Below, one piece after another: positions 3,620 to 60,753 of a DNA stretch of 64,000 nt. Location of the stretch: positions 258,337 to 322,336 of the forward strand of contig QOQU01000001.1 in the NCBI GenBank assembly GCA_003327455.1, given 5' to 3'. Each line of letters begins with the position of its first letter. Position 1 is the stretch's first letter. A program made the position numbers and the translations under genes. The notes under the pieces are model-generated. The model made no database searches, was not told the DNA's origin, and saw nothing but the letters and a program-made list of their open reading frames with translations. The stretch is from Anaerolineae bacterium. Its GTDB lineage: Bacteria > Chloroflexota > Anaerolineae > Anaerolineales > UBA4823.

Positions 3620-5506
3620 ATGAACTCCTCCCCGACCCTGAAAGACCTGCTGTTGAATGCCGGTGTACCCTTGCTTTCGGATGGAGCAATGGGCACGCAA
3701 CTTCATGCCCGCGGTATAACCTTCGACGAATGCTTTGATGGCTTGAACCTTACCAACCCCGATCTGGTTTTTCAGATTCACTGCGATTACCTCAAGGCCG
3801 GGAGCGATCTCCTTCAAACCAACACCTTCGGGGCAAACCGCTACAAACTTGCCTTGCATGGGTTAGAGAAGGACCTCAGGCGCATAAACCGACAGGGTGT
3901 TCAAATCGCCCGCCAGGCGGCCGGCTCAAGCTCCAGGAAAGTTTTTATTCTCGGCGATATCGGACCGCTGGGGGTTCGGCTGGCGCCTTATGGGCGTGTG
4001 CGACCAGAGCAGGCTCGCCAGGCTTTTCGTGAACAGATCGAAGCGCTGCTCGAAGCCGGGGTAGATGGTATCCTTTTGGAAACCTTTAGCGATCTCCTGG
4101 AGATCCGCGAAGCGATTGAGGCTGCCAAGGCCCTGAGCGACTTGCCGCTGATTGCTTCCATGACCTTTACCCGCGATGACGTGACCCTGTTAGGGGATAC
4201 GCCCGCTCAGGTGGCGCGACAATTGTACGAATACGGGGCAGATCTGATCGGGGTGAATTGTTCTGGCGGTCCAGCCCAGGTCTGGCGCATTCTACGCCAG
4301 ATGGGACAAACGCTGCTGGCGAGCAAGAAAACCTTACCGCCCTTCTCGGCGATGCCCAATGCCGGTTGGCCAGAGCAGGTGGGAGGACGGATCATGTACC
4401 CTGCCAACGCAGCCTATTTTGGCGAGTATGCGCTGGCTTTCTGCGAAGCCGGGGCGCGCCTGGTAGGCGGGTGTTGCGGCACGACCCCTGAGCATATCGC
4501 TGCCATGCGTGCAGCCTTAGATGGTCAAACGGGAGGATGTGCGCCCTCAGTCAGCGAACTCACCCTGCCAATCGAAATTGAGGACGCCAGAGGGGAAGTA
4601 GAAGCGCCCTCCCGCCTGGCGAAGAAACTGGCAGAAGGCAGGTTTGTGATCAGCGTGGAGATGGATCCACCGCGCGGCCTTTCCACCCATAAGCTATTAG
4701 CCGGAGCGAGCTTGCTCAGTGAAGCCGGAGCGGATGTGATTAACATCGCCGATAGCCCCATGGCGCGCATGCGCATGAGCCCCTGGGCGGTTTGTGAGCT
4801 GTTACAACGCACGTTTGACATCGAGACCACGTTGCATTTTCCGACCCGCGGACGTAATCTGCTGCGGGTACAGGGCGATTTGTTGGCTGCCCACGCCCTG
4901 GGCATCCGCAACGTCTTCGTTGTGATGGGCGACCCTACTGCCATTGGCGATTACCCCGACGCCATGGACAACTACGACCTTGTCCCCTCGGGCTTGATCA
5001 AGCTGATCAAACAAAATCTGAACGTTGGGCTCGACCAGGCGGGGGCAGAATTGGGACAGCCAACCCATTTTTTTGTCGGTTGCGCTTTGAATCTCACCCC
5101 AACGGACTTCGGTCAGGAGGCAAAAAACTTACGGCGCAAACTGGAGGCGGGAGCAGACTTTATTCTCACCCAACCCGTCTTTCAACCCCGGCGGGCTGAG
5201 GCTTTTTTACAATTTTATCAGGAGAAATATGGGGAATTGAAAACGCCGCTCTTAGCCGGCGTGTTGCCGCTCTACAGTATTCGGCATGCGCTTTTCCTGC
5301 ATAACGAAGTGCCGGGCATTCAAATCGAAGAGGAAACGCTGGAACGCATCCGCAAAGCAGGCGAAGACGCGCCAGAGGAAGGCATCCGCGTTGCGTTAGA
5401 ACTCATTGAGCAAATGCGCGGCTGGATCAGCGGCATTTACCTGATGCCCGCTTTTCACCGCTACGACATCGCATCGGAAATCATCGAAGCCTGTCGTAAA
5501 TCCTAG
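3620..5506 (+). CDS. yitJ: Bifunctional homocysteine S-methyltransferase / 5,10-methylenetetrahydrofolate reductase (YitJ-like fusion)
   Basis: N-terminal Hcy-binding domain (SDGAMGTQL, GGCCGTTPEHI) fused to an MTHFR-like C-terminal half (ISVEMDPPRG, HFPTRGRN). Start is 4 nt after the metH stop. Confidence 0.85.
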   Translation: MNSSPTLKDLLLNAGVPLLSDGAMGTQLHARGITFDECFDGLNLTNPDLVFQIHCDYLKAGSDLLQTNTFGANRYKLALHGLEKDLRRINRQGVQIARQAAGSSSRKVFILGDIGPLGVRLAPYGRVRPEQARQAFREQIEALLEAGVDGILLETFSDLLEIREAIEAAKALSDLPLIASMTFTRDDVTLLGDTPAQVARQLYEYGADLIGVNCSGGPAQVWRILRQMGQTLLASKKTLPPFSAMPNAGWPEQVGGRIMYPANAAYFGEYALAFCEAGARLVGGCCGTTPEHIAAMRAALDGQTGGCAPSVSELTLPIEIEDARGEVEAPSRLAKKLAEGRFVISVEMDPPRGLSTHKLLAGASLLSEAGADVINIADSPMARMRMSPWAVCELLQRTFDIETTLHFPTRGRNLLRVQGDLLAAHALGIRNVFVVMGDPTAIGDYPDAMDNYDLVPSGLIKLIKQNLNVGLDQAGAELGQPTHFFVGCALNLTPTDFGQEAKNLRRKLEAGADFILTQPVFQPRRAEAFLQFYQEKYGELKTPLLAGVLPLYSIRHALFLHNEVPGIQIEEETLERIRKAGEDAPEEGIRVALELIEQMRGWISGIYLMPAFHRYDIASEIIEACRKS

Positions 5507-5788: not shown

Positions 5789-6004
5789 CAGTCCTCCTGA
5801 GGATATGGGATTTTCTGTGGTCGGGCAATTGCCGCTCAAACCGAAGACCGAGTGCTGCGTCAATCGTGTATCCTGCTCACCTCACCCCCTCTACGTCCTC
5901 TCAGATGAGATCGGCTTACAACGACTCTTGCGCCATCGGTATCTGCTGTATTATAACGCAAGCTCGCGAAAGTTTATGTGAACAGAATTGGCTCTTTTTA
6001 CCCG

Positions 6005-6322
6005 CCCTCATCCCTAACCCCTCTCCCATGGGCGAGGGGAGTTTGATTCCCCTCCCCCTTAGGGGGAGGGCCAGGGTGAGGGATAAGAGCATAAGCGTCC
6101 AGGTGCAGTGGGCGAGGGGAGTTTGCCCTCACCCCCGGCCCCTCTCCCATGGGGAAAGGGGAGTTTGATTCCCTCCTCCTTAGGGGGAGGGCCAGGGTGA
6201 GGGATAAGAGCATAGGCGTCGAGCGGCGGCAGGCAAGGGGAGTTTGCCCTCACCCACAGCCCCTCTCCCATGGGGAGAGGGGAAACCCTCACCCCCATCC
6301 CCTCCCATGGGGAGAGGGGAGA
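6005..6322. repeat. Cluster of G/C-rich nested palindromes ('GEG' element family)
   Basis: Repeated CCCCTCTCCCatggGGAGAGGGG, CCCCTCCCCCttagGGGGAGGG and GGGTGAGGG/CCCTCACCC modules. Both strands translate to PLPxGEG-type pseudo-ORFs. Confidence 0.85.
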
Positions 6323-8804: not shown

Positions 8805-9625
8805 CGCTTTGAATGCCCTGACGGGCGGTGGAGGACTCCACTGGGTGGGAAAGATGGAGGTCTGGATTGGTCTTAATGCCCTAACGGCGGACAAGGGGGA
8901 TTCGGATTTGTTCGGTCGGGACGAGCGAAGCCCAAGGGGCATCATTCGGGCTATTGCGTGCCCCTTCTACTGGGCTAGCAGGCGTCCCGCCTGCTGTTGC
9001 GCATCTCGCACGGCCCCTTCGGTCGGGACGACCGAAGCCCAGCAAGTGCCAGCGACGGGCGGACAAGGATTCGGACCCCAGATTTTCAAGTGCGACGGGC
9101 AACTTCACATTCGTTGTCCGTCTTAATGCCCTAACGGGCGGACAAGGATTCGGACCCCAGATTTTCAAGTGCGACGGGCAACTTCACATTCGTTGTCCGT
9201 CTTAATGCCCTAACGGGCGGACGAGGATTCGGACCCCAGATTTTCAAGTGCGACGGGCAACTTCACATTCGTTGTCCGTCTTAATGCCCTAACGGGCGGA
9301 CAAGGATTCGGACCCCAGATTTTCAAGTGCGACGGGCAACTTCACATTCGTTGTCCGTCTTAATGCCCTAACGGGCGGACAAGGATTCGGACCCATAACG
9401 GCAGTCGCTTTGAGTTCCGCACTGCCGGGCATGGGTCTTAATGCCCTAACGGGCGGACAAGGATTCGGGCTAAAGGGGGGTATGCAATACGTTTTTAACA
9501 AGGGGGTTATCGTGAGTCTTAATGCCCTAACGGGCGGACAAGGATTCGGGCAAATGAAGAGGTATCTGTTCTACCATTACGGAAAATGGTCTTAATGCCC
9601 TAACGGGCGGACAAGGATTCGGGCC
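8805..9625 (-). CRISPR. Orphan CRISPR array. It has 7 intact 36-nt repeats (9120, 9199, 9278, 9357, 9435, 9516, 9590), one 5'-truncated repeat (about 9055-9076) and two degenerate repeats (about 8805-8840, 8870-8906)
   Basis: Repeat GTCTTAATGCCCTAACGGGCGGACAAGGATTCGG(A/G)C with 38-45 nt spacers. Minus-strand reading ends ..GGGCATTAAGAC (ATTGAAAC-like handle), and the degenerate repeats lie at the left end, so a minus orientation with the leader at about 9626-9760 is proposed (orientation confidence about 0.5). No cas ORF in the window. Confidence 0.9.
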
Positions 9626-15028: not shown

Positions 15029-15154
15029 AAGAATGGCTGGGACGTCGTGAGCATCGTTGCATCCCATCCTGCTACCCAAAAGCCATCTCGCCCCAAGACG
15101 TCCCACGCCAGATTTCTCTTTCGAGAACCCGACCGGTATGTTATAAGGAGTATT

Positions 15155-16690
15155 ATGAAGCCTACAGTATTGATCATTGGCGCAGGCATCGGTGGCATTG
15201 CAGCAGCAGCTCGCCTGGCAAAAAACGGTTTCCAGGTTACCGTAGTAGAAAAAAATGACCAGCCAGGCGGTCGGTGTGGGCAATTCAGCCGCGATGGGCA
15301 TCGCTTTGACATTGGCCCAACCCTTTTCCTGATGCCGGAAGTCTGGGATGAGACGTTTACTGCCCTCGGTGAGCGCATGAGCGATCACCTCGATTTGCGC
15401 CGCATCGATCCGACCTACAAAGTCCACTTTGAAGATGGCTTGCAGATAGCCCTCACTTCCAATCTGGGGGCGATGCAGACCCAATTAGAACGCGTCGAGA
15501 AGACCGCCTTTACCGGCTTCCTGCACTATATTGCTGAAGGCAGCAAACACTATAAAATTTCACTGGAGAGGTTTGTCGGGCGCAATTTCTACAGCCTGCT
15601 GGAGTATTTTTCACCGGCAAATCTCCCTCTGCTCTTTCAACTCAAGGCACTGGTCAAGCATTATGATAATGTCGGCAAATACTTCACCGACCCGCGTCTC
15701 AAAGCAGCCTTTACCTTTCAGAATATGTACCTGGGTTTGAGCCCCTATGATGCCCCGGCAACCTATTCCCTGCTGCAATACACCGAACTTGCCGAAGGGG
15801 TCTGGTATCCTATCGGTGGTATGTACGCCCCGATTCAGGCGCTGACCGCCATCGCAGAGAAACTGGGGGTACAGTTTGTCTATCATGCCGAAGTAACCCG
15901 CATCGAAACCTCCAATGGAAAGGTAGAGCGGGTTCACCTCAAAGATGGACGTACATTGCAGGCTGATATCTATATCGGTAACGCCGACTTGCCATATATT
16001 TATAAAGAACTCTTGCCCGATCCAGACGCGGCGCGCAGGTTCGATAAGATGCTCTACACCTGCTCGACCATCATGTTTTACTGGGGCGTGGATAAAGCCT
16101 ATCCGCAAATCGCCTTACACAACGTTTTCCTGAGCGGCGACTATAAGGCATCCTTCGATCGCATTTTCAAGGATCACACCCTGCCGGATACCCCTTCGTT
16201 CTACGTTCACGCGCCAACGCGAGTTGACCCTGCGGCTGCCCCGCCTGGTCAGGAAACGCTTTTTATCCTCGTGCCGGTTGGTCATCTCGATGAAAGTCGT
16301 CCGCAAGATTGGGAAGCGATGGTAAACCATGCTCGCCAAACCGTTTTCAACCGCCTTGCCAGAGAGATGAACGCCGCCGATTTGCCCGAACACATCAAAT
16401 TTGAAGTGGTGTACACAGCCCAGGACTGGAAGCAACGCTTCAATCTCGATAAGGGAGCAGCCTTCGGTCTCAGCCATAACTTCTGGCAGGTTGGCTATTT
16501 GCGACCCCAAAACCGGCATCGCCGTTATCGCAACCTGTACTTTGTCGGCGCTTCCACGCATCCGGGCACCGGCTTACCCATCGTCTTGCTCTCTGCCCGT
16601 CTGACTACGGAACGCATTCTGCGTGAGTGCAGCTTCTTATTCCAGACGAGGACAGACTCACAACCCCTTCAAACAGCGGTACCTTCATGA
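15155..16690 (+). CDS. crtI: Phytoene desaturase (start moved to MKPTVLIIGAG after AAGGAG)
   Basis: FAD fingerprint VLIIGAGIGGIAAAARLA; CrtI-family length; C-terminal FVGASTHPGTGLP motif. Confidence 0.9.
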   Translation: MKPTVLIIGAGIGGIAAAARLAKNGFQVTVVEKNDQPGGRCGQFSRDGHRFDIGPTLFLMPEVWDETFTALGERMSDHLDLRRIDPTYKVHFEDGLQIALTSNLGAMQTQLERVEKTAFTGFLHYIAEGSKHYKISLERFVGRNFYSLLEYFSPANLPLLFQLKALVKHYDNVGKYFTDPRLKAAFTFQNMYLGLSPYDAPATYSLLQYTELAEGVWYPIGGMYAPIQALTAIAEKLGVQFVYHAEVTRIETSNGKVERVHLKDGRTLQADIYIGNADLPYIYKELLPDPDAARRFDKMLYTCSTIMFYWGVDKAYPQIALHNVFLSGDYKASFDRIFKDHTLPDTPSFYVHAPTRVDPAAAPPGQETLFILVPVGHLDESRPQDWEAMVNHARQTVFNRLAREMNAADLPEHIKFEVVYTAQDWKQRFNLDKGAAFGLSHNFWQVGYLRPQNRHRRYRNLYFVGASTHPGTGLPIVLLSARLTTERILRECSFLFQTRTDSQPLQTAVPS

Positions 16691-17994
16691 CACCATTAAG
16701 CACAACTCCGGCGTTTAATCTCAAGGTAGTTCTCAAAGAAACCGGCATCCGCCCGGATACCCTGCGGGCATGGGAACGTCGGTATGGTTTACCCAAACCG
16801 CAGCGCTCAGCGGGAGGGCATCGTCTCTATTCTGAGCGCGACATCGAGACGATCAAGTGGTTGATGGCGCGCCAGGAGGAAGGGCTTTCCATCGCTCGCG
16901 CGGTTGACCTCTTGCGCAGTCAGATCGCCCAGGGGAACGACCCCCTCGAACACATCGAACCACCTCCATTGCAGCCCATAGCCACACCGGGTACGCTGGA
17001 AAGCATCCGTCAGGACTGGGTAGAAGCCTGCCTGGCTTTCGACGAAAAGCGGGCAGAAGGATTGCTCAATCAGGCTTTTGCTCTTTTCCCGCTCGAAACG
17101 GTCGTAACCGAGATACTCCAATATGCCATGATCCAGGTGGGGGAGCAGTGGTACCAAAACGACATTTCCGTCCAGCAGGAACATTTTGCCTCGGCGCTTG
17201 TCCAGCGGCGCTTAAATGCACTGATTGCTGCCTGTCCCCCGCCCACTCGCCCGGAAGTGATCTTAGTCGGCAATCCGCCCAGCGAGCAACATCTGATTCC
17301 GATCTTGATGTTGAATCTGTTTTTGCGTCGGCGCGGTTTTGGCGTCGTGGATATCGGCGCCAATGTGCCGGTTGCCAAATTTGATGAGACGGTGGAGCGG
17401 ATTAAGCCCCATCTGGTCGTTCTCAGCGCCCAACGTTTGAGCACGGTTGCTCCGATGATCGAGGTGATCCTCTCTCTGCATCCCCTGAAGACCCAGATTG
17501 CCTATGGAGGGCGCATTTTTAACCTTTTACCCCAATTGGTCGACCTGATACCGGCGCATTACCTGGGCAAGAGCCTGGATGAAGCAGTGCGCAACATCGA
17601 ACGCCTGCTCAGCCAGCGACCGCCTCTGCCACTTCCTTCAGCTAAGTTGCAAACGTACCAGCAGACAGCAGAGGTTTTTCGCCATCTCCGCCCACAAATC
17701 GAAGCGAAACTGTTTGAAGAGTTGAGCCCATACAACCTGCCCGAGGAATACCTCACCACTGCCATTGAAGACTTTGGCGATGTGCTTCACTCGGCTCTGG
17801 CAATTGGTGATCTGGATGCCATTCATCCAGAACTGGAGTGGCTGCGCGGCTTGCTTCATCAACATCATCTCCCCGACGGCATTCTCGCCCCGTTCTTAAT
17901 GGCATACGCACAGGCGGTGCGTTCGATGGAGGTAGCCCAACTGACGCCCCTGGTGGAGTGGTTAAAAACAACCGCTGAAAGAGTTGTGGCATAG
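16687..17994 (+). CDS. MerR-family regulator with a B12-binding domain (CarH/LitR-like) and an extra C-terminal region of about 120 aa
   Basis: MerR HTH (LKETGIRPDTLRAWERRYGLPKPQRSAGGHRLYSERDI); B12-binding fold (ILVGNPPSEQHLIPILMLNLFLRRRGFGVVDIG..VVLSAQRL..YGGRIF). The ATG overlaps the crtI stop (ATGA). Confidence 0.8.
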   Translation: MTPLSTTPAFNLKVVLKETGIRPDTLRAWERRYGLPKPQRSAGGHRLYSERDIETIKWLMARQEEGLSIARAVDLLRSQIAQGNDPLEHIEPPPLQPIATPGTLESIRQDWVEACLAFDEKRAEGLLNQAFALFPLETVVTEILQYAMIQVGEQWYQNDISVQQEHFASALVQRRLNALIAACPPPTRPEVILVGNPPSEQHLIPILMLNLFLRRRGFGVVDIGANVPVAKFDETVERIKPHLVVLSAQRLSTVAPMIEVILSLHPLKTQIAYGGRIFNLLPQLVDLIPAHYLGKSLDEAVRNIERLLSQRPPLPLPSAKLQTYQQTAEVFRHLRPQIEAKLFEELSPYNLPEEYLTTAIEDFGDVLHSALAIGDLDAIHPELEWLRGLLHQHHLPDGILAPFLMAYAQAVRSMEVAQLTPLVEWLKTTAERVVA

Positions 17995-18029
17995 GTCAGC
18001 CTGAGATTGTCTTCCAGAACGGGTAGCAC

Positions 18030-19424
18030 ATGCCGACGATTTGGTGGATTCGCCGTGACTTAAGACTGACCGACAACGGCGCGCTGCATGCTGCCCTTCA
18101 AGAGGGAGAAGTCATCCCATTATTTATTCTTGATCCACATTTGCTCGCCCATTCTGCCCCCAAACGGCTTAATTTCCTCTTTGGCGGCTTGCAGGCTCTG
18201 GATGAAAGCCTGCGCCAGCGCGGCGCGGCGCTGATCCTGCGCCGCGGTGAGCCCCTGACCGTCTTGCGCCAGATGCTGGCAGAGAGCGGCGCTGTGCACG
18301 TTTATGCCGAAGAAGACTACACGCCCTATGCGCGCCGCCGCGATGAAAAAATCCGGGCTGAAATTCCGCTGCATCTCATCGCCTGGCAAACCGTTCATCA
18401 TCCGGCAAGGGTGCGAAAGCCGGATGGAAAGCCTTACACCGTTTACACTCCCTACGCCAAAGCCTGGAAAGCAAACCTGGTTGATCTCAAACTCCTGCCA
18501 GCCCCTGAACGGATCATCCTGCCGCCCGGTCTCTCCAGTGAACCCTTGCCGCCTTTTCAACCCGAGGCACACTTTCCGCCCTCGGAACAGGAAGCGCAGT
18601 TGCGCCTTGAAGAGTTCACCCGTTCAGCCTCCGTTCCCTCTCTGCGCAGGGGATGGGGTGGCATCTTTACCTATGCCGAACAGCGCAACCGCATGGATCT
18701 GGACGGCACTTCCCAGCTTTCGCCCTATTTACGCTTTGGCATGCTTGGAATGCGGCAGGCGGTCTTTGCAGCCGTGCAAGCCATGCGCACTTCGCCACCC
18801 GGAATGAGCAAATCGGCTGAAACGTGGTTGAACGAATTGATCTGGCGCGAGTTCTACATTCAAATCCTGTATCATTTCCCTTACGTTCGGCGAGAGGCAT
18901 TCAACCGGGCTTTTGCGAACCTGCCCTGGCAGAACGATGAAGCCGCTTTTCAGAGTTGGAAAGAGGGATTGACCGGAATGCCGATCGTGGATGCCGCAAT
19001 GCGCCAGTTGCGCCAGATGGGCTGGATGCACAATCGCGCCCGCATGATTGTGGCTTCCTATCTGGTTAAGGACATGTTGATCGACTGGCGCTGGGGAGAA
19101 GCATGGTTTATGGAGAACCTGATCGATGGTGATCTGGCTGCCAACAACGGCGGCTGGCAATGGACAGCCGGCACCGGCACCGACGCTGCACCCTATTTTC
19201 GCATCTTCAATCCCGTTTTACAAAGTCGAAAATTTGATCCCTACGGAGCTTATATCCGCCGCTGGGTGCCCGAACTGCGCCACCTGGATGACGATGCCAT
19301 TCATGCACCGTGGCTCAAAGGGGTTCGGGTTGCCGGTTACCCCTCGCAGCCGGTTGTTTTACCCGATAAAGCCCGCACTTTAGCCGTCTATCGTTCAGGG
19401 CGAACTGGTCAACAGCGAAGCTGA
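18030..19424 (+). CDS. phr: Deoxyribodipyrimidine photolyase
   Basis: IWWIRRDLRLTDN N-terminus; FAD-binding C-terminal half (WREFY, GWMHNRARM, DGDLAANNGGWQW). Confidence 0.9.
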   Translation: MPTIWWIRRDLRLTDNGALHAALQEGEVIPLFILDPHLLAHSAPKRLNFLFGGLQALDESLRQRGAALILRRGEPLTVLRQMLAESGAVHVYAEEDYTPYARRRDEKIRAEIPLHLIAWQTVHHPARVRKPDGKPYTVYTPYAKAWKANLVDLKLLPAPERIILPPGLSSEPLPPFQPEAHFPPSEQEAQLRLEEFTRSASVPSLRRGWGGIFTYAEQRNRMDLDGTSQLSPYLRFGMLGMRQAVFAAVQAMRTSPPGMSKSAETWLNELIWREFYIQILYHFPYVRREAFNRAFANLPWQNDEAAFQSWKEGLTGMPIVDAAMRQLRQMGWMHNRARMIVASYLVKDMLIDWRWGEAWFMENLIDGDLAANNGGWQWTAGTGTDAAPYFRIFNPVLQSRKFDPYGAYIRRWVPELRHLDDDAIHAPWLKGVRVAGYPSQPVVLPDKARTLAVYRSGRTGQQRS

Positions 19425-20136: not shown

Positions 20137-20976
20137 TCATTCGCGCTCTTTCGCTCGCGGGCGAGGCAATGGGTACGGCAGAGGGATATATTCAACTGTC
20201 GGACGCCCCATCCCGGCTTGCGGGTACATGTTCATCAATTGATAGACTTCTTTGGGGACATCCGTGGAGATGGGCAACCCCAAACCCCGCGCTTCTTCAA
20301 CGGTGATCGGGTAATCGTGCGTCCAGCGTCCGCTGGAGAGGACTTCGGCAAGCGTTTCTGCCTGTTCGGGGGTGGTATGACTCATCAGGATTTCGCGTAA
20401 GGTATCTTTGACCTGCCGCATCGCCTTGCGGGCAACATCGGCTAAGATCAACGTTTCATCGTTGATCTTTTCGAGTGGCTTTTGCTCTAAGACGGCAAGG
20501 ATAGAGGCGGCCGGTTGTTGACCGATTTGCGGATCGACCGGCCCAAGCACGGCATTCTCGTCCATCACGATTTCGTCGGCAGCCAGGGCGATCATGGTGC
20601 CGCCCGACATGGCATAGTGCGGCACAAAGACGGTCACTTTAGCGGGATGGCGACAAAGGGCTTTGGCGATCTGCTCGGCAGCCAGTACCAATCCGCCAGG
20701 CGTGTGCAGGATGATGTCAATGGGTACATTCGGATCGGTTAGCTTGATCGCCCGTAAAATCTCTTCCGAGTCATTGATGTCAATATAACGGGCAAGTGGA
20801 AAACCCAGGAAGGACAGGCGTTCCTGGCGGTGAATCAGGGCAATGGCGCGTGAGTTGCGTTTGACTTCCAACTGGCGTAACATGCGCGTCCGACTGGCTT
20901 CCAGCATGCGCTGACGGATCACCGGCTGTAAGGAGGAAATGACCAGGAAGAGAAAGAATAAAATTGTAAAGTCCAT
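20137..20976 (-). CDS. Membrane-anchored Clp-fold serine protease (SDH_sah / DUF114-like)
   Basis: N-terminal TM, then IALIHRQE..IDIILHTPGGLVLAAEQIA..YAMSGGTMIALAADEI pattern. Confidence 0.6.
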   Translation of the reverse strand: MDFTILFFLFLVISSLQPVIRQRMLEASRTRMLRQLEVKRNSRAIALIHRQERLSFLGFPLARYIDINDSEEILRAIKLTDPNVPIDIILHTPGGLVLAAEQIAKALCRHPAKVTVFVPHYAMSGGTMIALAADEIVMDENAVLGPVDPQIGQQPAASILAVLEQKPLEKINDETLILADVARKAMRQVKDTLREILMSHTTPEQAETLAEVLSSGRWTHDYPITVEEARGLGLPISTDVPKEVYQLMNMYPQAGMGRPTVEYIPLPYPLPRPRAKERE

Positions 20977-20996
20977 GTCTCACCTCGCGGAGGGGA

Positions 20997-21850: not shown

Positions 21851-22579
21851 TCAACAGCCAGCTTTTTCAGCCACAATGATCACATTCGGCGAAAAGCGTT
21901 CGAGGGGTTTCTGATCAAAGCTGCCGAAGGTCGCTTGAATGCGAAAGCCAGCGTGCTCGAATTCGCCGAGCAGGAGGCTTACATCCTCCAGCGCATACTT
22001 CTGGCGATAGACGAAGCGCTGCACTTCGCCGTTGGGAAATAGTTGATCGTATCTCCACTCCACCTCGAGCCAGCCTGACTGGCGCTGCCAGGTGGTCAGG
22101 ACCTGGACCGGGTTATCGGACTGCGGATGGAGAAAAATCTCTTCCAGTTCGGCTTCCACCTTCGGTGGCAGAGTCTGGAGCAGGGCAGGGTTTGGGAAGC
22201 TCACCCCGAAGGCGCCTCCGATTTGCAAGCTCTGCCAGACATTGCTCAAAATTGCCCGGCGTTGTGGAGCGTCAAAGGTGGAATAGGTATTACAGGGCAA
22301 CAGCGCGAGCCGAAAGCCAGAAGCAAGCCCCAGGTGTCTCATATCGGCACAAAAAACATTTGCCGCCCCGCGCTGCTGCAGATAGCGCAGCATACTCAAA
22401 TCCAGATCGAAGCCAAATACCCGCAAGCCGCTATTCTGTAACGCATGATAGACTCGCCCGGTGCCGCAACCCATCTCCAGGACAGGTTCACCATAACGGC
22501 GAGCCAGTTCGAGGAAAAAGGGTATATCCTCGCTATAGCTGGCGTGATGGGCATGAAATAAGGGTGGAAAGCGATTCAC
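21851..22579 (-). CDS. Class I SAM-dependent methyltransferase
   Basis: Motif I VLEMGCGTGRV, motif II VFGFDLD. Confidence 0.8.
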   Translation of the reverse strand: MNRFPPLFHAHHASYSEDIPFFLELARRYGEPVLEMGCGTGRVYHALQNSGLRVFGFDLDLSMLRYLQQRGAANVFCADMRHLGLASGFRLALLPCNTYSTFDAPQRRAILSNVWQSLQIGGAFGVSFPNPALLQTLPPKVEAELEEIFLHPQSDNPVQVLTTWQRQSGWLEVEWRYDQLFPNGEVQRFVYRQKYALEDVSLLLGEFEHAGFRIQATFGSFDQKPLERFSPNVIIVAEKAGC

Positions 22580-22637: not shown

Positions 22638-22714
22638 CGGGGTGTGGCGCAGTACGGTAGCGCACCGCGTTTGGGACGCGGGGGTCGGCGGTTCAAGTCC
22701 GCCCGCCCCGACCT
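22638..22714 (+). tRNA. tRNA-Pro (anticodon TGG)
   Basis: Hand-folded cloverleaf: acceptor CGGGGTG/CGCCCCG, D stem GCGC/GCGC, anticodon stem CCGCG/CGCGG with loop TTTGGGA, T stem GGCGG/CCGCC. Confidence 0.9.
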
Positions 22715-23050
22715 TCGCAGTGGATTAACTAACTTGATAAGGTCGTTACTCGCTTATATTGTCACGCAAGCAACCCGAAAAAGCCGAAAGCAAGCGGAGC
22801 GGAACGCAGTGGAGCGGAGCGCAGCTTTCGGCTCAGGGTTGCTTGCGTAGGTTCGGGTGGGTGGGGGTTTGGGATGGTTTCAATCCGCGCGGGAGGCACT
22901 TCTTACCTGACACGCTCCTAACCTATCACCTGGAGAAGCGCGGTCGCGTTTTGCCAATTTTCCCCCCAGGAAAATTGAGCAAAACGGTTCATTGAATCTA
23001 TTCGACATTCTTCAACCGGATGAAAGCAATTCATCCTATACACTCTTTCT

Positions 23051-23222
23051 CTCCACAACCAGGCTAAGGCTTTCTCTCTCTGCCGGCGTTCCATCTCTGA
23101 CCTGGTTATAGCTTTCTCTCTATGCCGGCAATTCATCCACAACCTGGCCAAGTATTTCTTTCTACAACCTGGCTAAGGCTTTCTTTCTACAACCTGGCTC
23201 TGGCTTTCTTTCTCTGCCGGCG
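23051..23222. repeat. About 5 imperfect tandem repeats, core ACAACCTGGCTAAGGCTTTCT(C/T)TCT(CTGCCGGCG)
   Basis: Read directly. A related CTGCCGGCG(a/t)TCCATCTCTGACCTGG(c/t)TAT(a)GCTTC block recurs at 24894-24930 on the other side of the gene module. Confidence 0.75.
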
Positions 23223-23337
23223 GTATATCTCTCTCAGTTGTATAAGCGGTACGGGTTTATAAGGGGAAGGTTGGTTTGATGAGTAGATGAGATCGGGGTA
23301 TTGGTTGGCGGTTCGATGCGCAGACGTTCCACAGTTG

Positions 23338-23511
23338 TTAGCTGTCCGAATCCTGGTTGTTTTGGTTTTCTTCTGATTCTTTGTCTAAATCAATTCGAAA
23401 CAAAGGATAATGATTCTCTGGATAGGGATTAGCAAGGGAGATTAGGGCAAGGATGAATAGAAGGATGATGAAAGTTTTCAGGAAGCAGGTTAATTCAAGG
23501 ATATCTAGCAT
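23338..23511 (-). CDS. 57-aa small membrane protein (hand-called; MLDILELTCFLKTFIILLFILALISLANPY...)
   Basis: The ATG overlaps the upstream stop (AAATGCTAG); one TM helix. Last gene of the island module. Confidence 0.45.
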   Translation of the reverse strand: MLDILELTCFLKTFIILLFILALISLANPYPENHYPLFRIDLDKESEENQNNQDSDS

Positions 23512-23711
23512 TTGGGTTTCCTGATGGGGTTTTTCGATGGTTGAAGTTGGTTCAGGATTTCTTTGATTTGCTCCAGGCGTTCGGTGATTTTATTCAGGGC
23601 TTCAAGGTGCTTTTCGTCTTTGATTTCCTGGCGTTTCATGAGTTCGAGGGTGTACCAGATGAAGATGGCCAGGAGGGGGAATTGGATGAAGACAGGTAAA
23701 AGGTCTTGCAT
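23505..23711 (-). CDS. 68-aa N-terminal TM plus coiled-coil protein
   Basis: LPVFIQFPLLAIFIWYTL TM followed by a charged helix. Tightly packed in the module. Confidence 0.5.
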   Translation of the reverse strand: MQDLLPVFIQFPLLAIFIWYTLELMKRQEIKDEKHLEALNKITERLEQIKEILNQLQPSKNPIRKPKC

Positions 23712-23715
23712 GGGT

Positions 23716-24093
23716 TTATTCCTGGTCGGTAAGGGTTGATGCGTTTTGGGTTAGTTCATGGGTGAGTTCTTTCAGGATGTTGGTGAGGGGGTTTTGTTCT
23801 TCTCGCCGGCGAGTTTCGATGATGGATTGGGTGTTGTAGATGCGGGCGATCGAAAGGGTTATTTTCAGCATGGTGTCGATGTAGGTTAAAAGGGTTTCCT
23901 GGCTGATATTGGATGATTTCAGTTCTGCCATGATTCTTCTCCCGATTACTCTAAGGGCGTTTATTTCGGATTTTAGGGTTTCATCCAGGTTGTCAAGGTC
24001 GGCTCTTTCCAGTTGTCTAAATGCGCGGGCATAATAGCCATGTTTGAGGGCATTTAAGTTTCCTCTCGGCGCGCCTCTGTGTTTGTGATCCAT
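23716..24093 (-). CDS. 125-aa protein with an N-terminal GAPRGNLNALKHGYY motif, unknown function
   Basis: I associate the GAPxGNxNAxKHG motif with small phage/plasmid-borne proteins. This rests on memory only, with no homology search. Confidence 0.45.
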   Translation of the reverse strand: MDHKHRGAPRGNLNALKHGYYARAFRQLERADLDNLDETLKSEINALRVIGRRIMAELKSSNISQETLLTYIDTMLKITLSIARIYNTQSIIETRRREEQNPLTNILKELTHELTQNASTLTDQE

Positions 24094-24290
24094 AGGATTC
24101 TGGCTTTTTGATTGATATTGCGAAGGTGCAGGCGAACGGTTTGGGGTGATAGGTTTAGTTCTTGGGATATTTCTTTTTTCGATTTGCCGGCATTGCGCAG
24201 GTCGTTGATGATGCGTTCGGTATGGGTGAGGATGGGGATATTGTTACCGGTGAGATAATACCTGGTTTGATTGGTGATGATGATCCGCAT
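24054..24290 (-). CDS. 78-aa LuxR/sigma70-region-4-type HTH protein
   Basis: SKKEISQELNLSPQTVRLHLRNINQK helix-turn-helix. Confidence 0.55.
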   Translation of the reverse strand: MRIIITNQTRYYLTGNNIPILTHTERIINDLRNAGKSKKEISQELNLSPQTVRLHLRNINQKARILWITNTEARREET

Positions 24291-24474
24291 GGCTTGTTTT
24301 GGTTGATTGAAGTTTTTCCAGAATGGGGCGGGGGATAGGTTGATTGTTGAGCAGGCATTTGAGAAATAGACGGTATTCTTTATCGTTCAGGTTTTCGATG
24401 GCGGAGGTTGAGAAGGTGTAATGGGTTCCGTCCTGGTAGATGGTGCAGGTCATATGGGGGATGGTGGTTGTCAT
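24244..24474 (-). CDS. 76-aa hypothetical protein (start moved to MTTTIPH, 2 nt after the upstream stop)
   Basis: ORF packed as TAAGCATG after the Zn-ribbon gene; no recognisable motif. Confidence 0.4.
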   Translation of the reverse strand: MTTTIPHMTCTIYQDGTHYTFSTSAIENLNDKEYRLFLKCLLNNQPIPRPILEKLQSTKTSHADHHHQSNQVLSHR

Positions 24475-24476
24475 GC

Positions 24477-24734
24477 TTAGATTCCGAGTTTGTAGTTCAG
24501 TTCTTCTTGGAAGCAATCGTGGCAAAGGGGGAGTTCGACTTTGTAGGCGCCATCTTCACCGACGCTGGTTTCGAGGATGATAACGGCTTTGTTTCCGCAT
24601 TGGCAGTTTAGTTGTCTTCTTTTATAGGCGGGGTCGTTGCGGTGGCAGGGCAGGCATACGCCTAAGCCGTTGCCTTCTCCCAGGTAGGGAAGGTTGCAGA
24701 TTTTACAATTTGGTTTGATGCGGATGTTGGGCAT
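24477..24734 (-). CDS. 85-aa Cys-rich zinc-ribbon protein (island copy); paralog of 41206-41505
   Basis: CKIC..CLPC..CQC..CHDC; alignable with CRSC..CLAC..CAC..CEQC of the 41206 gene, including shared LPYL and VE(L/I)PLC blocks. Confidence 0.65.
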   Translation of the reverse strand: MPNIRIKPNCKICNLPYLGEGNGLGVCLPCHRNDPAYKRRQLNCQCGNKAVIILETSVGEDGAYKVELPLCHDCFQEELNYKLGI

Positions 24735-24747
24735 GTTTCCTCTCCAA

Positions 24748-24796
24748 ATAGAACGTTTGTTCTATTTATTTTAGAGAAGTTTTACTTAAATGTCAA
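24748..24796 (-). promoter_or_regulatory. Island module promoter (TTGACA 24791-24796, 17-nt spacer, TAAAAT 24768-24773) with a Cheo-type LexA box ATAGAACGTTTGTTCTAT (24748-24765) over the predicted start site
   Basis: Read directly; perfect GAAC-N4-GTTC core. Confidence 0.65.
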
Positions 24797-24947
24797 TCGG
24801 GGAATTGGCTTGCGAATGGGGCGAATTCATGCTAAGATAAGGTATCTTTCCCTCCCAAGCCTCTGATGGTTGTAAGCCATCAGGGGCTTATGTTTGCCGG
24901 CGATCCATCTCTGACCTGGCTATGGCTTCAGGTTATTAATTGAGGTG

Positions 24948-24956
24948 TGTTATAAT
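24948..24956 (+). promoter_or_regulatory. Extended -10 promoter candidate (TGTTATAAT) firing rightward into the 35-bp repeat array
   Basis: TGnTATAAT read directly; no good -35. Confidence 0.35.
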
Positions 24957-25000
24957 ACAGGTGGCTTCTCTCTATGCCCTTGATGGTTGCCATCCCATCG

Positions 25001-25187
25001 GGGGCATTTTCAATCTAACGACAATTTACCCACCGTGGGCATTTTCAATCTAACGACAATTTACCCAGCTGGGGCATTTTCAATCTAACGACAATTTACC
25101 CAGCTGGGGCATTTTCAATCTAACGACAATTTACCCACCGGTGGCATTTTCAATCTAACGACAATTTTCCCACAGGGAAAATTGTCG
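25001..25187. repeat. Five exact-period 35-bp tandem repeats (GGCATTTTCAATCTAACGACAATTTACCCA + 5 variable nt) ending in a 13-bp perfect hairpin CGACAATTTTCCC-aca-GGGAAAATTGTCG
   Basis: Unit starts at 25004, 25039, 25074, 25109 and 25144. Hairpin 25159-25187 followed by GTTCATTTTA. Confidence 0.9.
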
Positions 25188-25708
25188 GTTCATTTTAGAT
25201 AAAAACGCCCCAACCTTGCCCAAGCCGAACACGAAGTCGGATAAAGAGGTTATTTTAGCTTTTCTTATCTGAGTGGTTTTTTCAACCTTGCCCAAGCTAC
25301 GGCTGGGCAAGGCGTAAGTTTTGCCCCTAATCCCCCTATCCCGCCCCCCCATGTTAGACTTTCCTTGCTGGGGTGTGGGGGTTGGGTGGGGGGGCTTGGG
25401 GGGGCGGGAGGGGGAGGGGCAAAATTGGGGCGTGGTTCATTCTTCCAGGGGGTTTGTCAGGTGGGAAGGGGCTAGTTTTCCAGGTGAGGGCGGTCGTTCG
25501 GTTCGCATGGCTGAGCAAACGGACTATAACCCGGTCGTGTCAGGCGTTTTTGTTCAAGGGGCTATTGCATGACCTGATAACCTTTGCATTAAGTGCCTCT
25601 GTGTTTGCGCCAGCAGGTTTTGCCTGGGCATTTTCAGGCGTGGGCTGGGCGGCGCGGTTTCTTTTCCTTGTTTCTACGCCGGCGGTTGTTGAAAACGATT
25701 ATCATTAT

Positions 25709-25993
25709 CAGGAAGAGAAAGAATAAAATTGTAAAGTCCATGTCGCACGTCATGAAAACGAATTTCATTATCAATATCTTTATTCGGAGACAAGCTTCAT
25801 TTAACTTGTTTCTGCTCGAAGCCAAATACGCGCAAGCCGCTATTCTGTAACGCATGATAGACTCGCCCGGTGCCGCAACCCATCTCCGAACGTTTTTTCC
25901 GTCATTGTTCGCTTCATTTAACTTGTTTTCATCCCGGCTTTAGGACGCGGGGGTCGGCGGTTCAAGTCCGCCCGCAACTCACGCAAGCAACCC
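25709..25993. other. Collinear micro-copy of the upstream chromosome: four short blocks identical to 20944-20979, 22407-22478, 22674-22706 and 22762-22776
   Basis: Blocks at 25709-25744 (36/36), 25816-25887 (71/72), 25943-25975 (33/33) and 25979-25993 (15/15), same order and orientation. The linkers contain GCTTCATTTAACTTGTTT twice. Confidence 0.85.
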
Positions 25994-26100
25994 TGTTTTC
26001 GCTTGCTTTCCCTGGCCCTCTGGGGGTGGGTGGGTGGGGGGTGGTGGCGGTGCTTTGCTCGATGCCGGCGTTCTCGCATGTTCGCTTCTTTCTGCTGGCT

Positions 26101-26220
26101 TTGCTTGCTCAATGTCTGGCTACGATTCGGTCCGCGGTGAATGCTTGCTCAATGTCGATCTACGATTCGGTTCTCGGTGAATGCTTGCTCGGTGTCGATC
26201 TACGATTCGGTTCTCGGTGG
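26101..26220. repeat. 3 x 40-bp tandem repeat (TGCTTGCTCAATGTCGATCTACGATTCGGTTCTCGGTGAA)
   Basis: Copies start at 26101, 26141 and 26181. Confidence 0.85.
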
Positions 26221-26431
26221 TTGTTTAATTGGTGTGGCTTAACAAGAATAAAAGCGAATCCGGGTTTGGGTTAGTGGGGGAATGGCGGTTCAAGTCCGCC
26301 CGCCCCGACCTTCTGGGGGCATAAAACGATCGGTTGCGAAAGTGCGACTCCCATTTATTGTGTTTTTACTGCAAAAGCCTTAAATGGGCTGCTCCCCTTG
26401 CCCACCGAAACACCCAAACGCCTATGTCCTT

Positions 26432-26790
26432 ATCCCTCACCCTGACCCTCTCCCTGAGGGAGAGGGAACCTGACTCCCCTCGCCCATTGGGAGAGGGGTT
26501 GGAGGTGAGGGCATTCTCCAATCCCTCACCCTGGCCTTCTCCCTGAGGGATAGAGAACTTGACTCCCCTCGCCCATTGGGAGAGGGGTTGGAGGTGAGGG
26601 CATTTTCCAATCCCTCACCCTGGCCTTCTCCCTGAGGGAGAGAGAACTCAACTCCCCTCGCCCATTGGGAGAGGGGTTGGAGGTGAGGGCATTTTCCAAT
26701 CCCTCACCCTGGCCCTCTCCCTGAGGAATAGAGAACTTGACTCCCCTCGCCCATTGGGAGAGGGGTTGGAGGTGAGGGGGATAAGCCCTT
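26432..26790. repeat. 4 x 89-bp tandem array of the complete 'GEG' nested-palindrome unit
   Basis: Unit atCCCTCACCCtggCCCTCTCCCtgaGGGAGAGGGaac..CTCCCCTCGCCCattGGGAGAGGGGttGGAGGTGAGGGcatt. Copies start at 26432, 26521, 26610 and 26699. Confidence 0.9.
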
Positions 26791-60106: not shown

Positions 60107-60283
60107 GGAGAGGGAATCAAACTCCCCTCGTCCAACGGGAGAGGGGCTGGGGGTGAGGGCATTCTCCCCTCGCCTCGTGGGAGAGGGGTTGGGGGTGAGG
60201 GCACTATCCCCTCGCCCAGCAGGAGAGGGGTCGGGGGTGAGGGTTTCCCCTCGCTCAACGGGCGAGGGGGCGGGGGTAAGGGC
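60107..60283. repeat. 'GEG' elements: about 4 tandem half-units CCCCTCGCCCnnnnGGGAGAGGGGnnGGGGGTGAGGG
   Basis: Read directly, period about 46 bp. Confidence 0.85.
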
Positions 60284-60378
60284 TGCTCCCCCAGGTTAGC
60301 CTGCAAGGCTTTCACGGATTCAGGCAGGGCTTCAGCCCACCGAAAAGGTCACCCATCGCACCTGGACGCCTGGGTTCT

Positions 60379-60581
60379 TATCCCTCACCCTAACCCTCTC
60401 CCTAATGGAGAGGGAATCCATCTCCCCTCGCCCTGTGGGAGAGGGGGCGGGGGTGAGGGTCTCTTCCCTCGCCCTATGGGAGAGAAGACGGGGGTGAGGG
60501 TTTCCCCTCGCCCCATGGGAGAGGGGCCGGGGGTGAGGGCACTTTCCCCTCGCCCAACGGGCGAGGGGAGGGGGGTGAGGG
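60379..60581. repeat. 'GEG' elements: one full unit plus about 3 half-units
   Basis: atCCCTCACCCtaaCCCTCTCCCtaatGGAGAGGG... followed by repeated CCCTCGCCCnnnGGGAGAGnnnnGGGGGTGAGGG. Confidence 0.85.
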
Positions 60582-60753
60582 CTTCGTCGCGTGGCAGAGG
60601 GGTAAATTCGGGGGTAAGTGCTTCCTCAGGCGAGGAGGAGTGACGGCGATCTGAATGCGGGCGCAAACCCGCAAGGGTTGGGGCGGGCAGAGGCAGGGCT
60701 CTAGCCCGCCGTGAGAGTCAAGGAGATGTCTCGCACCAGGCAGTTGCGATCGC

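Follow-up and report, generated by a model that had tools for sequence, protein, structure and literature searches.

A 35-nucleotide tandem array on a tRNA-Pro island of an Anaerolineae bacterium, tentatively read as a young minisatellite

A stretch of 64,000 nucleotides from an Anaerolineae bacterium (contig QOQU01000001.1, positions 258,337 to 322,336), which we refer to as the window, carries a short tandem array at positions 24998 to 25172 (plus strand). This array consists of five head-to-tail units of 35 nucleotides, each formed by a 5-nucleotide linker and a 30-nucleotide core. It resides in a small island bounded by 30-bp att-core repeats that correspond to the 3′ end of tRNA-Pro(tgg), with 3,597 bp between the cores. 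The left att core (22687 to 22716, plus strand) is the 3′ end of the tRNA-Pro-tgg gene itself (tRNA at 22638 to 22713), and the right att core (26284 to 26313, plus strand) is its 30-bp copy. Six small genes are present in the island, all on the minus strand. The array lies 270 to 480 bp upstream of the first gene of this operon and 0.9 to 1.1 kb from a gene for a protein that resembles terminase small subunits (TerS-like). An earlier note on this DNA had offered two explanations for the repeats, namely iterons in the DNA or a repeat-built RNA.

The array is real and far beyond what chance would produce, as evident by the fact that its core, GGCATTTTCAATCTAACGACAATTTACCCA, is found in five copies at no more than one mismatch whereas 0 copies are expected in shuffled sequences. 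Tandem Repeats Finder (TRF) reports a period of 35 nucleotides, 5.3 copies and 92% matches. Exact cores start at 25003, 25038, 25073 and 25108, and a fifth starts at 25143 with a single change, from A to T at position 25168. The five 35-bp units of the earlier note are therefore upheld, but the description of their core as invariant and of the repeats as exact is not, since the fifth core carries this substitution; the unit starts given there (25004 and onward) are each one base too high. The claim that no open reading frame (ORF) spans the region is borne out, with only mechanical TTG-start ORFs of 33 to 37 amino acids running into the array. The differences among units are strongly clustered, such that 7 of 25 linker cells depart from the majority nucleotide, compared with 1 of 150 core cells (Fisher p=4e-6). 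Three units make up 105 bp, or approximately 10 helical turns.

The linkers themselves have an unusual property. In order, they read TCGGG, CCGTG, GCTGG, GCTGG and CCGGT, with C at position 2 in every case, and each internal linker forms a perfect palindrome of 5+5 nucleotides with the adjoining core sequence (25029 to 25147, no strand assigned). These junction palindromes are CCCAC.GTGGG at 25029-25039, CCCAGCTGGG at both 25064-25073 and 25099-25108, and CCACCGGTGG at 25135-25144. All three distinct internal linkers yield arms of at least 5 nucleotides, compared with 5.9% of random 5-mers placed in the same context. The center of the palindrome shifts from one junction to the next and the period stays constant at 35. 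The spacing of the half-sites also differs (CCCA-N3-TGGG, CCCA-N2-TGGG and CCA-N4-TGG), which argues against recognition by one rigid dimeric binder. As RNA, single units have predicted folding energies of 0 to -4.6 kcal/mol, no better than those of shuffled sequences, and therefore the linker palindromes add little as RNA hairpins. They are perfect through their centers, a property that an RNA hairpin would not require.

A sixth, degenerate copy of the unit follows the array in inverted orientation (25175 to 25211, minus strand), and it carries a 7-nucleotide insertion and a 1-nucleotide deletion. Its local alignment score of 28 exceeds the shuffle maximum of 24. The perfect 13-bp stem that had been noted after the last unit is present as described (25159-25171 paired with 25175-25187, then GTTCATTTTA), and in the predicted fold it is lengthened by AUCUAA/UUAGAU across a 7-nucleotide bulge, GUUCAUU. 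Unit 5 and the inverted unit 6 together make the complete terminal stem-loop, which occupies 25153 to 25200 (plus strand) and has a predicted energy of -19.9 kcal/mol (z=-5.9). Because the inverted copy lies at 25175-25211, the supposed 13-bp terminator amounts to the inner portion of a head-to-head palindrome between units 5 and 6. This unit pair is, in addition, paralogous to a hairpin with a GGTTCATT element near the left end of the island. This left-end relative (22948 to 23017, plus strand, -22.4 kcal/mol) has the arms GTTTTGC-CAATTTTCC...GGAAAATTG-GCAAAAC, followed by GGTTCATT and a weakly unit-like sequence, GAATCTATTCGACATTC, whose likeness to the core, scoring below 26, does not exceed noise. 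A left-end hairpin with a GGTTCATTGA element and a different stem is also carried by L005, one of the related islands described below. Elsewhere in the window, unit-like sequences do not rise above noise level, except for a hairpin tail, GGGCATTTTC(C)AATC, that is common to the array and to host elements resembling repetitive extragenic palindromes (REP-like).

The region upstream of the array bears on how the repeats might be transcribed. An extended -10 element, TGTTATAAT (promoter B, 24948 to 24956, plus strand, read from sequence), indeed points towards the array, as had been proposed, and lies 46 nucleotides before the first core. It is unique in the window, and an element of the same type, TGgTATTAT, occupies the equivalent place in the related islands L005 and L015. 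However, the promoter is separated from the array by a second hairpin (hairpin B, 24974 to 25007, plus strand), which has a 13-bp stem, the loop UUGCCAUC and a trailing AUUUUC (-21.6 kcal/mol, z=-3.5). This hairpin overlaps the first core, and the first bases of the array are its 3′ arm and AUUUUC tail. Its loop is identical to that of the L005 hairpin, and the stems differ.

Hairpin B is the terminator-like end of a unit resembling a small RNA (sRNA) gene (unit B, 24948-25012, plus strand), which is composed of promoter B, a C/U-rich leader and the hairpin. Such a unit occurs twice in the window. Its paralogue, unit A (24810 to 24889, plus strand), combines a weak promoter (TTGCGA-18-TAAGAT) with the C/U-rich leader CUUUCCCUCCC and a hairpin of 15 bp (24857-24889, -23.9 kcal/mol). 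The unit is also conserved in related islands, where it is divergent from the island operon and comprises an extended -10, a C/U-rich leader (GGYTTCYCCTCT-like), a hairpin and a T-run; its counterparts are at 1204-1296 in L005 and 288-362 in L015 (both minus strand), with different stems and the pairing kept. Conservation of promoter, leader and hairpin together looks like the signature of a gene for an sRNA of 50 nucleotides, whose leader could serve as an anti-Shine-Dalgarno sequence directed at the operon's ribosome-binding sites, which are of the GGAG type. The promoter that was thought to serve the repeats thus belongs to a conserved promoter-leader-hairpin unit that ends in a -21.6 kcal/mol hairpin before the array, and so the repeats would be transcribed only by read-through. 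Since AUUUUC is a poor U-tract, such read-through is plausible.

To judge whether the array belongs to the island family as a whole, comparison with relatives is instructive. A family with the same gene order occurs at tRNA-Pro(cgg) in other metagenomes (L005-L016), and its members encode TerS-like proteins that are 55-63% identical to that of the window. These islands keep the six-gene order, the TAGAACnnnnGTTCTA operator at the operon promoter, the divergent extended -10 TGgTATTAT with its C/U-rich leader and T-run hairpin, and a second hairpin with a long C-rich/G-rich palindrome. They likewise sit at a tRNA-Pro gene and have the left-end hairpin with the GGTTCATTGA element. No 35-nucleotide array is present at the equivalent position in L005-L016, where approximately 75-270 nucleotides are found. 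For example, the spacer between hairpin B and the C/G palindrome is 311 nucleotides in the window, where the array fills it, and approximately 75 nucleotides in L005. From this comparison, the array would seem to be dispensable for the island family.

Closer relatives differ at the same place. In L002 and L003, the operon is 98-99% identical to that of the window, and the sequences diverge just before promoter B; past this point they consist of copies of the 23115-23165 repeat modules, which replace promoter B. Other arrays of this element family also vary among contigs whose encoded protein is identical. An array of 33 nucleotides x3 is missing from L010 and L013, one of 67 nucleotides x2.2 is present only in L011 and L013, and one of 9 nucleotides x14 likewise differs between such contigs. 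Among tandem arrays near TerS-like genes at 103 related loci, only that of L028 resembles the layout of the window, which is too little to generalize from. This locus, from a Chloroflexia metagenome-assembled genome (MAG), has a 37-nucleotide x4.2 array (4581-4960) followed by an inverted partial copy with a 16-bp stem; an operator-like site, CAGAACATTTGTGCTA, and a TerS-like gene come approximately 230 nucleotides downstream.

Searches aimed at a function for the repeats returned little. The Rfam comparison that the earlier note had recommended, run in gathering mode on the whole window and at E values up to 10 on 24700-25500, yielded only tRNAs and hairpin noise and no relevant family. Exact scans with 21-23-mers of the core gave 0 matches in genome, viral and metagenome collections, from which the genome of the window itself is evidently absent, such that the result says little about the host. 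There was no match to 24800-25320 by blastn in phage and plasmid collections, and no complement of the unit of at least 11 nucleotides exists elsewhere in the window that would indicate an antisense target. Pfam and PADLOC searches of the island and downstream ORFs revealed no ToxN, CptN, TenpN or Abi-like protein, and none of ten window ORFs of 129-205 amino acids is a ToxN-like toxin in Pfam. No credible plus-strand ORF lies within 340 bp downstream of the palindrome. The ORFs at 25321-25726 are mechanical and G-rich, overlie the conserved C/G-rich palindrome and match no family; the one that was looked up, of 117 amino acids (25373-25726), has no entry among called genes. No Rep or primase family was detected among the six island proteins, and NCBIfam, applied to four of them, adds none. 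GC content stays at 0.43-0.48 both within the array and next to it, without any AT-rich trough that could serve as an unwinding element, and no DnaA box at one mismatch or fewer exists within 1.7 kb. Taken at face value, the array appears to have no dedicated partner gene.

Given these observations, the explanation that we favor, although only tentatively, is a minisatellite, a tandem amplification that is young and restricted to one lineage. Slippage would have created it, and template switching at quasi-palindromes would have remodeled its linkers. The array consists of near-identical head-to-tail units in non-coding DNA and is lineage-specific, as minisatellites are. Cores 1-4 are identical, whereas core 5 shares its T with the inverted copy, which points to recent amplification from the palindrome of units 5 and 6. 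That units 1-4 share A in turn suggests amplification from one mutated copy of a pair formed by the core and the inverted core. In the ancestral state, a single 30-nucleotide core would have faced its inverted copy immediately after the hairpin of unit B, and this ancestral hairpin with its GGTTCATT element would have the paralogue that is also seen near the left end of the island. One copy would then have gained the T-to-A change and been amplified, by replication slippage or by unequal exchange, between the CCCA...GG microhomologies that bound the 35-nucleotide unit. The quasi-palindromic linkers (CCCA-N5-GG) would later have been re-perfected by template-switch mutations, in multi-base steps and with shifting centers. 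Transcription would probably depend on read-through alone, starting at promoter B and passing the weak AUUUUC terminator of hairpin B.

Template switching at quasi-palindromes is an established mechanism for mutation hotspots (PMC7202029). Events of this type change several bases at a time and make perfect palindromes, and they account for the clustered variation, the palindromes and the variable spacing of half-sites. The minisatellite reading also accounts for the absence of the array from relatives and for the lack of a partner gene. Like bacterial variable-number tandem repeats (VNTRs) and quasi-palindrome hotspots (PMC7202029), the array comprises near-identical, non-coding, head-to-tail units with multi-base changes that create perfect short palindromes; it is likewise lineage-specific and has many other arrays for company in the same genome. 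Clustered multi-base differences are found in a neighboring 40-nucleotide array of the island as well. By contrast with the usual VNTR reports, the restriction of variation to linkers and the exactness of the period are stronger here, and selection could act.

Several observations weigh against this history and against the absence of a dedicated function that it would entail. Variation is confined to linkers, all three distinct internal linkers are perfect palindromes, and the period is exactly 35; an identical pattern would result from purifying selection on the core combined with a constraint on the palindromes. A near-consensus extended -10 aims into the array, the terminal hairpin is strong, and the geometry of five 35-nucleotide repeats is within the range of type III antitoxin arrays. 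Furthermore, the absence of the array from L002 and L003 is a local inference, shown for 50 nucleotides before the contigs end, and L001 and L004 break in unit 1, so that the copy number reported is that of the window. We consider it rather improbable that the array is a functional accessory module, either a toxin-less decoy RNA (mimicking a type III antitoxin or another repeat RNA and made by read-through from the sRNA-like promoter) or a multimerized recognition platform for packaging or regulation, of an undescribed group of approximately 3.6-kb satellite-like islands of Chloroflexota that lack an integrase and encode only a TerS-like protein and small regulators. If it were, selection would act on the invariant 30-nucleotide core, and the palindromic linkers could vary freely.

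An alternative at the DNA level, which we regard as doubtful, holds that the five direct cores and one inverted core are bound by the LuxR-type helix-turn-helix (HTH) protein or the TerS-like protein of the island. The array would then be either a pac-like recognition site through which concatemers of the island are packaged into the capsids of a helper phage, or an array that serves regulation or titration beside the divergent promoters. Both candidate proteins are encoded by the island, a circle or tandem junction was recovered from another sample, and a layout of five direct copies and one inverted copy is typical of protein-binding arrays. The invariance of cores relative to linkers, the helical phasing of three units, and the recurrence of a hairpin with GGTTCATT and weakly unit-like sequence near the left end can be viewed similarly, although this last likeness to the core is the one that scores within noise. 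In the pac region of SPP1, sets of direct repeats cover the promoters as well as the beginning of the terS operon (PMC4737164), and the window bears some resemblance to SPP1 and SF6 in having direct repeats near promoters of an operon encoding a TerS-like protein. However, the TerS DNA-binding domain did not bind the box repeats of SPP1/SF6 specifically (PMC4737164), and in the window the array is 0.9-1.1 kb from the TerS-like gene. The encoded protein matches only the central part of TerS profiles and lacks the usual N-terminal HTH, the separate HTH protein is unlike the N-terminus of phage TerS, and a better operator for it is available at 24749-24764. The sister islands have no array at this position, and so the array is not an essential cis site of the family. 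It is far less probable still that the repeats are iterons at a replication origin of the island, to which an initiator from the island or from a helper would bind. The combination of non-coding direct repeats with an inverted copy, on a small element that appears to circularize, does resemble plasmid and phage iteron origins and satellite origins of the SaPI type. Iterons are usually 17-22 bp, and a 35-bp unit is thus atypical. The initiator gene, the AT-rich unwinding element and DnaA boxes, and conservation of position among L005-L016 are all lacking, and the repeat clusters at 23045-23232 are better conserved candidates. The proposal of origin iterons in the earlier note is weakened accordingly.

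At the RNA level, read-through transcription that starts at promoter B might turn the repeats into a decoy or sponge RNA that ends at the hairpin of units 5 and 6, although we think this unlikely. Such an RNA would present five 25-nucleotide, A/U-rich, single-stranded modules between small GC clamps, and could, for example, imitate a type III antitoxin as an orphan and neutralize a host or helper endoribonuclease, like the pseudo-ToxI of phage PhiTE. Type III toxin-antitoxin loci are recognized by tandem repeats, a promoter at the array start, a palindrome after the array and a downstream gene for an endoribonuclease toxin (Blower et al., 2012; PMC3401426), and the architecture of the window approaches three of these four, with the repeats and the palindrome in place and a candidate promoter upstream. 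The layout recalls that of ToxI, in which a constitutive-type promoter is followed by short head-to-tail repeats and a short palindrome, and its 5 x 35 nucleotides are close to the 5.5 x 36 nucleotides of ToxI. In type III systems the toxin also processes the repeat RNA and assembles with it through a pseudoknot, whereas single units of the array fold no better than shuffled sequences. Differences from the ToxI locus are nevertheless considerable: no toxin gene follows the palindrome, the palindrome is an inverted repeat copy, the units have no predicted structure, and there is no similarity in sequence or in Rfam. Even the promoter, 46 nucleotides upstream, has its own strong 13-bp hairpin between it and the array, as in the array-less relatives. 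Pseudo-ToxI of PhiTE is a toxin-less antitoxin mimic that expanded by repeat amplification (PMC3475682), which demonstrates that mobile elements can carry such cargo, and the window has in common with it a set of toxin-less short tandem repeats on a mobile element with a copy number derived from recent amplification. A patchy distribution would also suit accessory counter-defense cargo, and the poor U-tract of hairpin B would permit read-through. In contrast to the PhiTE case, neither a cognate toxin nor a host array that matches is known, and the core was found nowhere else in the collections searched. The perfection of the linker palindromes through their centers is another feature that an RNA would not need. 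The earlier idea of an RNA of approximately 230 nucleotides built from the repeats therefore loses ground, given the intervening hairpin B, the unstructured units, and the lack of both an Rfam match and a toxin gene.

Least probable of all, the array could belong to a complete type III toxin-antitoxin locus with a toxin that has escaped recognition. The geometry of array and palindrome fits, some cptIN toxins are truncated to 45-66 amino acids, and gaps between repeats and toxin can reach 340 bp (PMC3401426). However, no plausible plus-strand ORF is available within that distance, and the only candidates are the mechanical, G-rich ORFs noted above. Relatives retain the conserved island genes without the array, and hence none of these genes depends on it. 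A complete locus of this kind was rejected, since the toxin gene is missing among the ORFs searched. The array is best classed as a minisatellite on a mobile element.

The island that hosts the array has several additional features. A Logan contig from another sample (L001), which is 99.5% identical, joins 26033-26313 directly to 22687-25031, the junction that excision as a circle or tandem duplication would be expected to produce. The six genes (minus strand) encode an 85-amino-acid Zn-ribbon-like orphan, a 76/93-amino-acid ORF product, a 78-amino-acid HTH protein, the 125-amino-acid TerS-like protein, and membrane-like proteins of 68 and 57 amino acids. The Zn-ribbon protein, whose gene adjoins the array, has a single match, at 96% identity. 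The TerS-like protein (23716 to 24093, minus strand) matches PHROG 1889 (E=3.7e-6) and also the NCBIfam model TerS_not_xtmA at E=1.8e-5, a match that is below the cut-off of that model. It aligns only to profile positions 83-152 of 276, which leaves it without the N-terminal DNA-binding (HTH) domain of phage TerS profiles. Its homologues on viral contigs are encoded directly upstream of large terminase and portal genes, and more distant homologues were observed in Chloroflexota MAGs and on viral contigs next to the large terminase gene (TerL). A second metagenome scan with this single TerS-like protein recovered no relatives. The 78-amino-acid protein (24054 to 24290, minus strand) is of the LuxR/GerE type (Pfam GerE, E=5.5e-10) and is a candidate DNA binder. 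We considered whether it and the TerS-like protein represent a TerS split into an HTH ORF and a core ORF, and dropped this idea because the HTH protein has no similarity to the N-terminus of phage TerS. A palindromic operator-like site, TAGAACGTTTGTTCTA (24749 to 24764, no strand assigned), closely follows the minus-strand operon promoter, TTGACA-17-TAAAAT. L005, L015 and L016 retain this site and L028 has a similar one; it is likely the operator for the HTH regulator of the island.

No integrase, Rep, capsid or large terminase gene was identified in the island and its flanks, and therefore the island looks like a minimal phage-satellite-like element; a prophage remnant is less likely. Approximately seven modules, ACAACCTGGCTAAGGCTTTCTYTCT / TGCCGGCG...CCATCTCT, with periods of 25 and 42 nucleotides, occupy 23045-23232 downstream of the operon, and one copy that is 91% identical is located at 24895-24928, just upstream of promoter B. 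Modules of this type may serve the island as iterons or as substrates for recombination. After a small hairpin, positions 25319-25424 hold a long palindrome, C-rich/G-rich and imperfect (CCCCTAATCCCCCTATCCCGCCCCCCC...GGGGGGGCGGGAGGGGGAGGGG), which is conserved at the same place in L005, L015 and L016. Near the right end of the island, a 40-nucleotide x3 array (26102-26226) follows a G-rich tract (26024-26053); in L005-type islands the same tract is followed by an unrelated 33-nucleotide x3 array (L005 615-715), which some of several near-identical contigs carry and others lack. The right part of the island also contains short, exact or near-exact copies of host DNA. Positions 25709-25744 equal 20944-20979, at the 5′ end of the gene at 20137-20976, and 25816-25887 equal 22407-22478, inside a methyltransferase-like ORF (21851-22579). 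A partial third copy of tRNA-Pro is present at 25934-25975. These fragments suggest past imprecise excision or tandem insertion.

The window has at least 10 further tandem arrays. One of these resembles a clustered regularly interspaced short palindromic repeat (CRISPR) array (9120-9622; TRF array 9055-9394), with seven repeats of GTCTTAATGCCCTAACGGGCGGACAAGGATTCGG... that are probably on the minus strand, where they end in ...ATTAAGAC. The same 45-nucleotide spacer appears three times between its repeats, followed by three unique spacers, and a fourth copy of the spacer at the truncated left end gives the 4.3 copies reported by TRF. The ‘79-nucleotide repeat’ of TRF is thus the CRISPR repeat-spacer unit duplicated four times. 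Pfam detected no Cas family among the flanking ORFs scanned, with some neighbors (e.g. 15047-19424) outside the scan, and none of the spacers matches the island or any fetched locus. We also rejected a relation between the 35-nucleotide array and CRISPR repeats or their mimics (Racr-like RNA anti-CRISPRs): its linkers are only 5 nucleotides long, similarity to the CRISPR repeat or spacer of the window is not significant (P=0.03-0.67), and no Rfam CRISPR-DR model matches at E<=10. Arrays of REP-like palindromic units, CCCTCACCC...GGGAGAGGGG...GGTGAGGG, are found at 26432-26778, 6004-6320 and 60122-60585. The units at 26432-26778 end in GGGCATTTTCCAATC, and similar tails, GGGCATTTTGAATC and GGGCATTTTCGATT, occur at approximately 1941 and 46811 on the minus strand. 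A tail of the same kind follows hairpin B, where it starts the 35-nucleotide unit.

As a young minisatellite, the array would mainly mark the pace at which non-coding DNA is remodeled in the small mobile elements of this genome. If the template-switch explanation is true, it would provide a clean natural example of an invariant core with re-perfected palindromic linkers. If the core is instead selected, the array would be one of two things: an antitoxin-like decoy that has no toxin and occurs beyond Firmicutes and Proteobacteria, or, for a minimal satellite that encodes TerS, the first array known to act in cis recognition. Of greater interest than the array itself is the island, with its six small genes, a TerS-like protein, no integrase, att repeats at tRNA-Pro and a circle or tandem junction, and the tRNA-Pro islands may constitute an undescribed family of minimal phage satellites.

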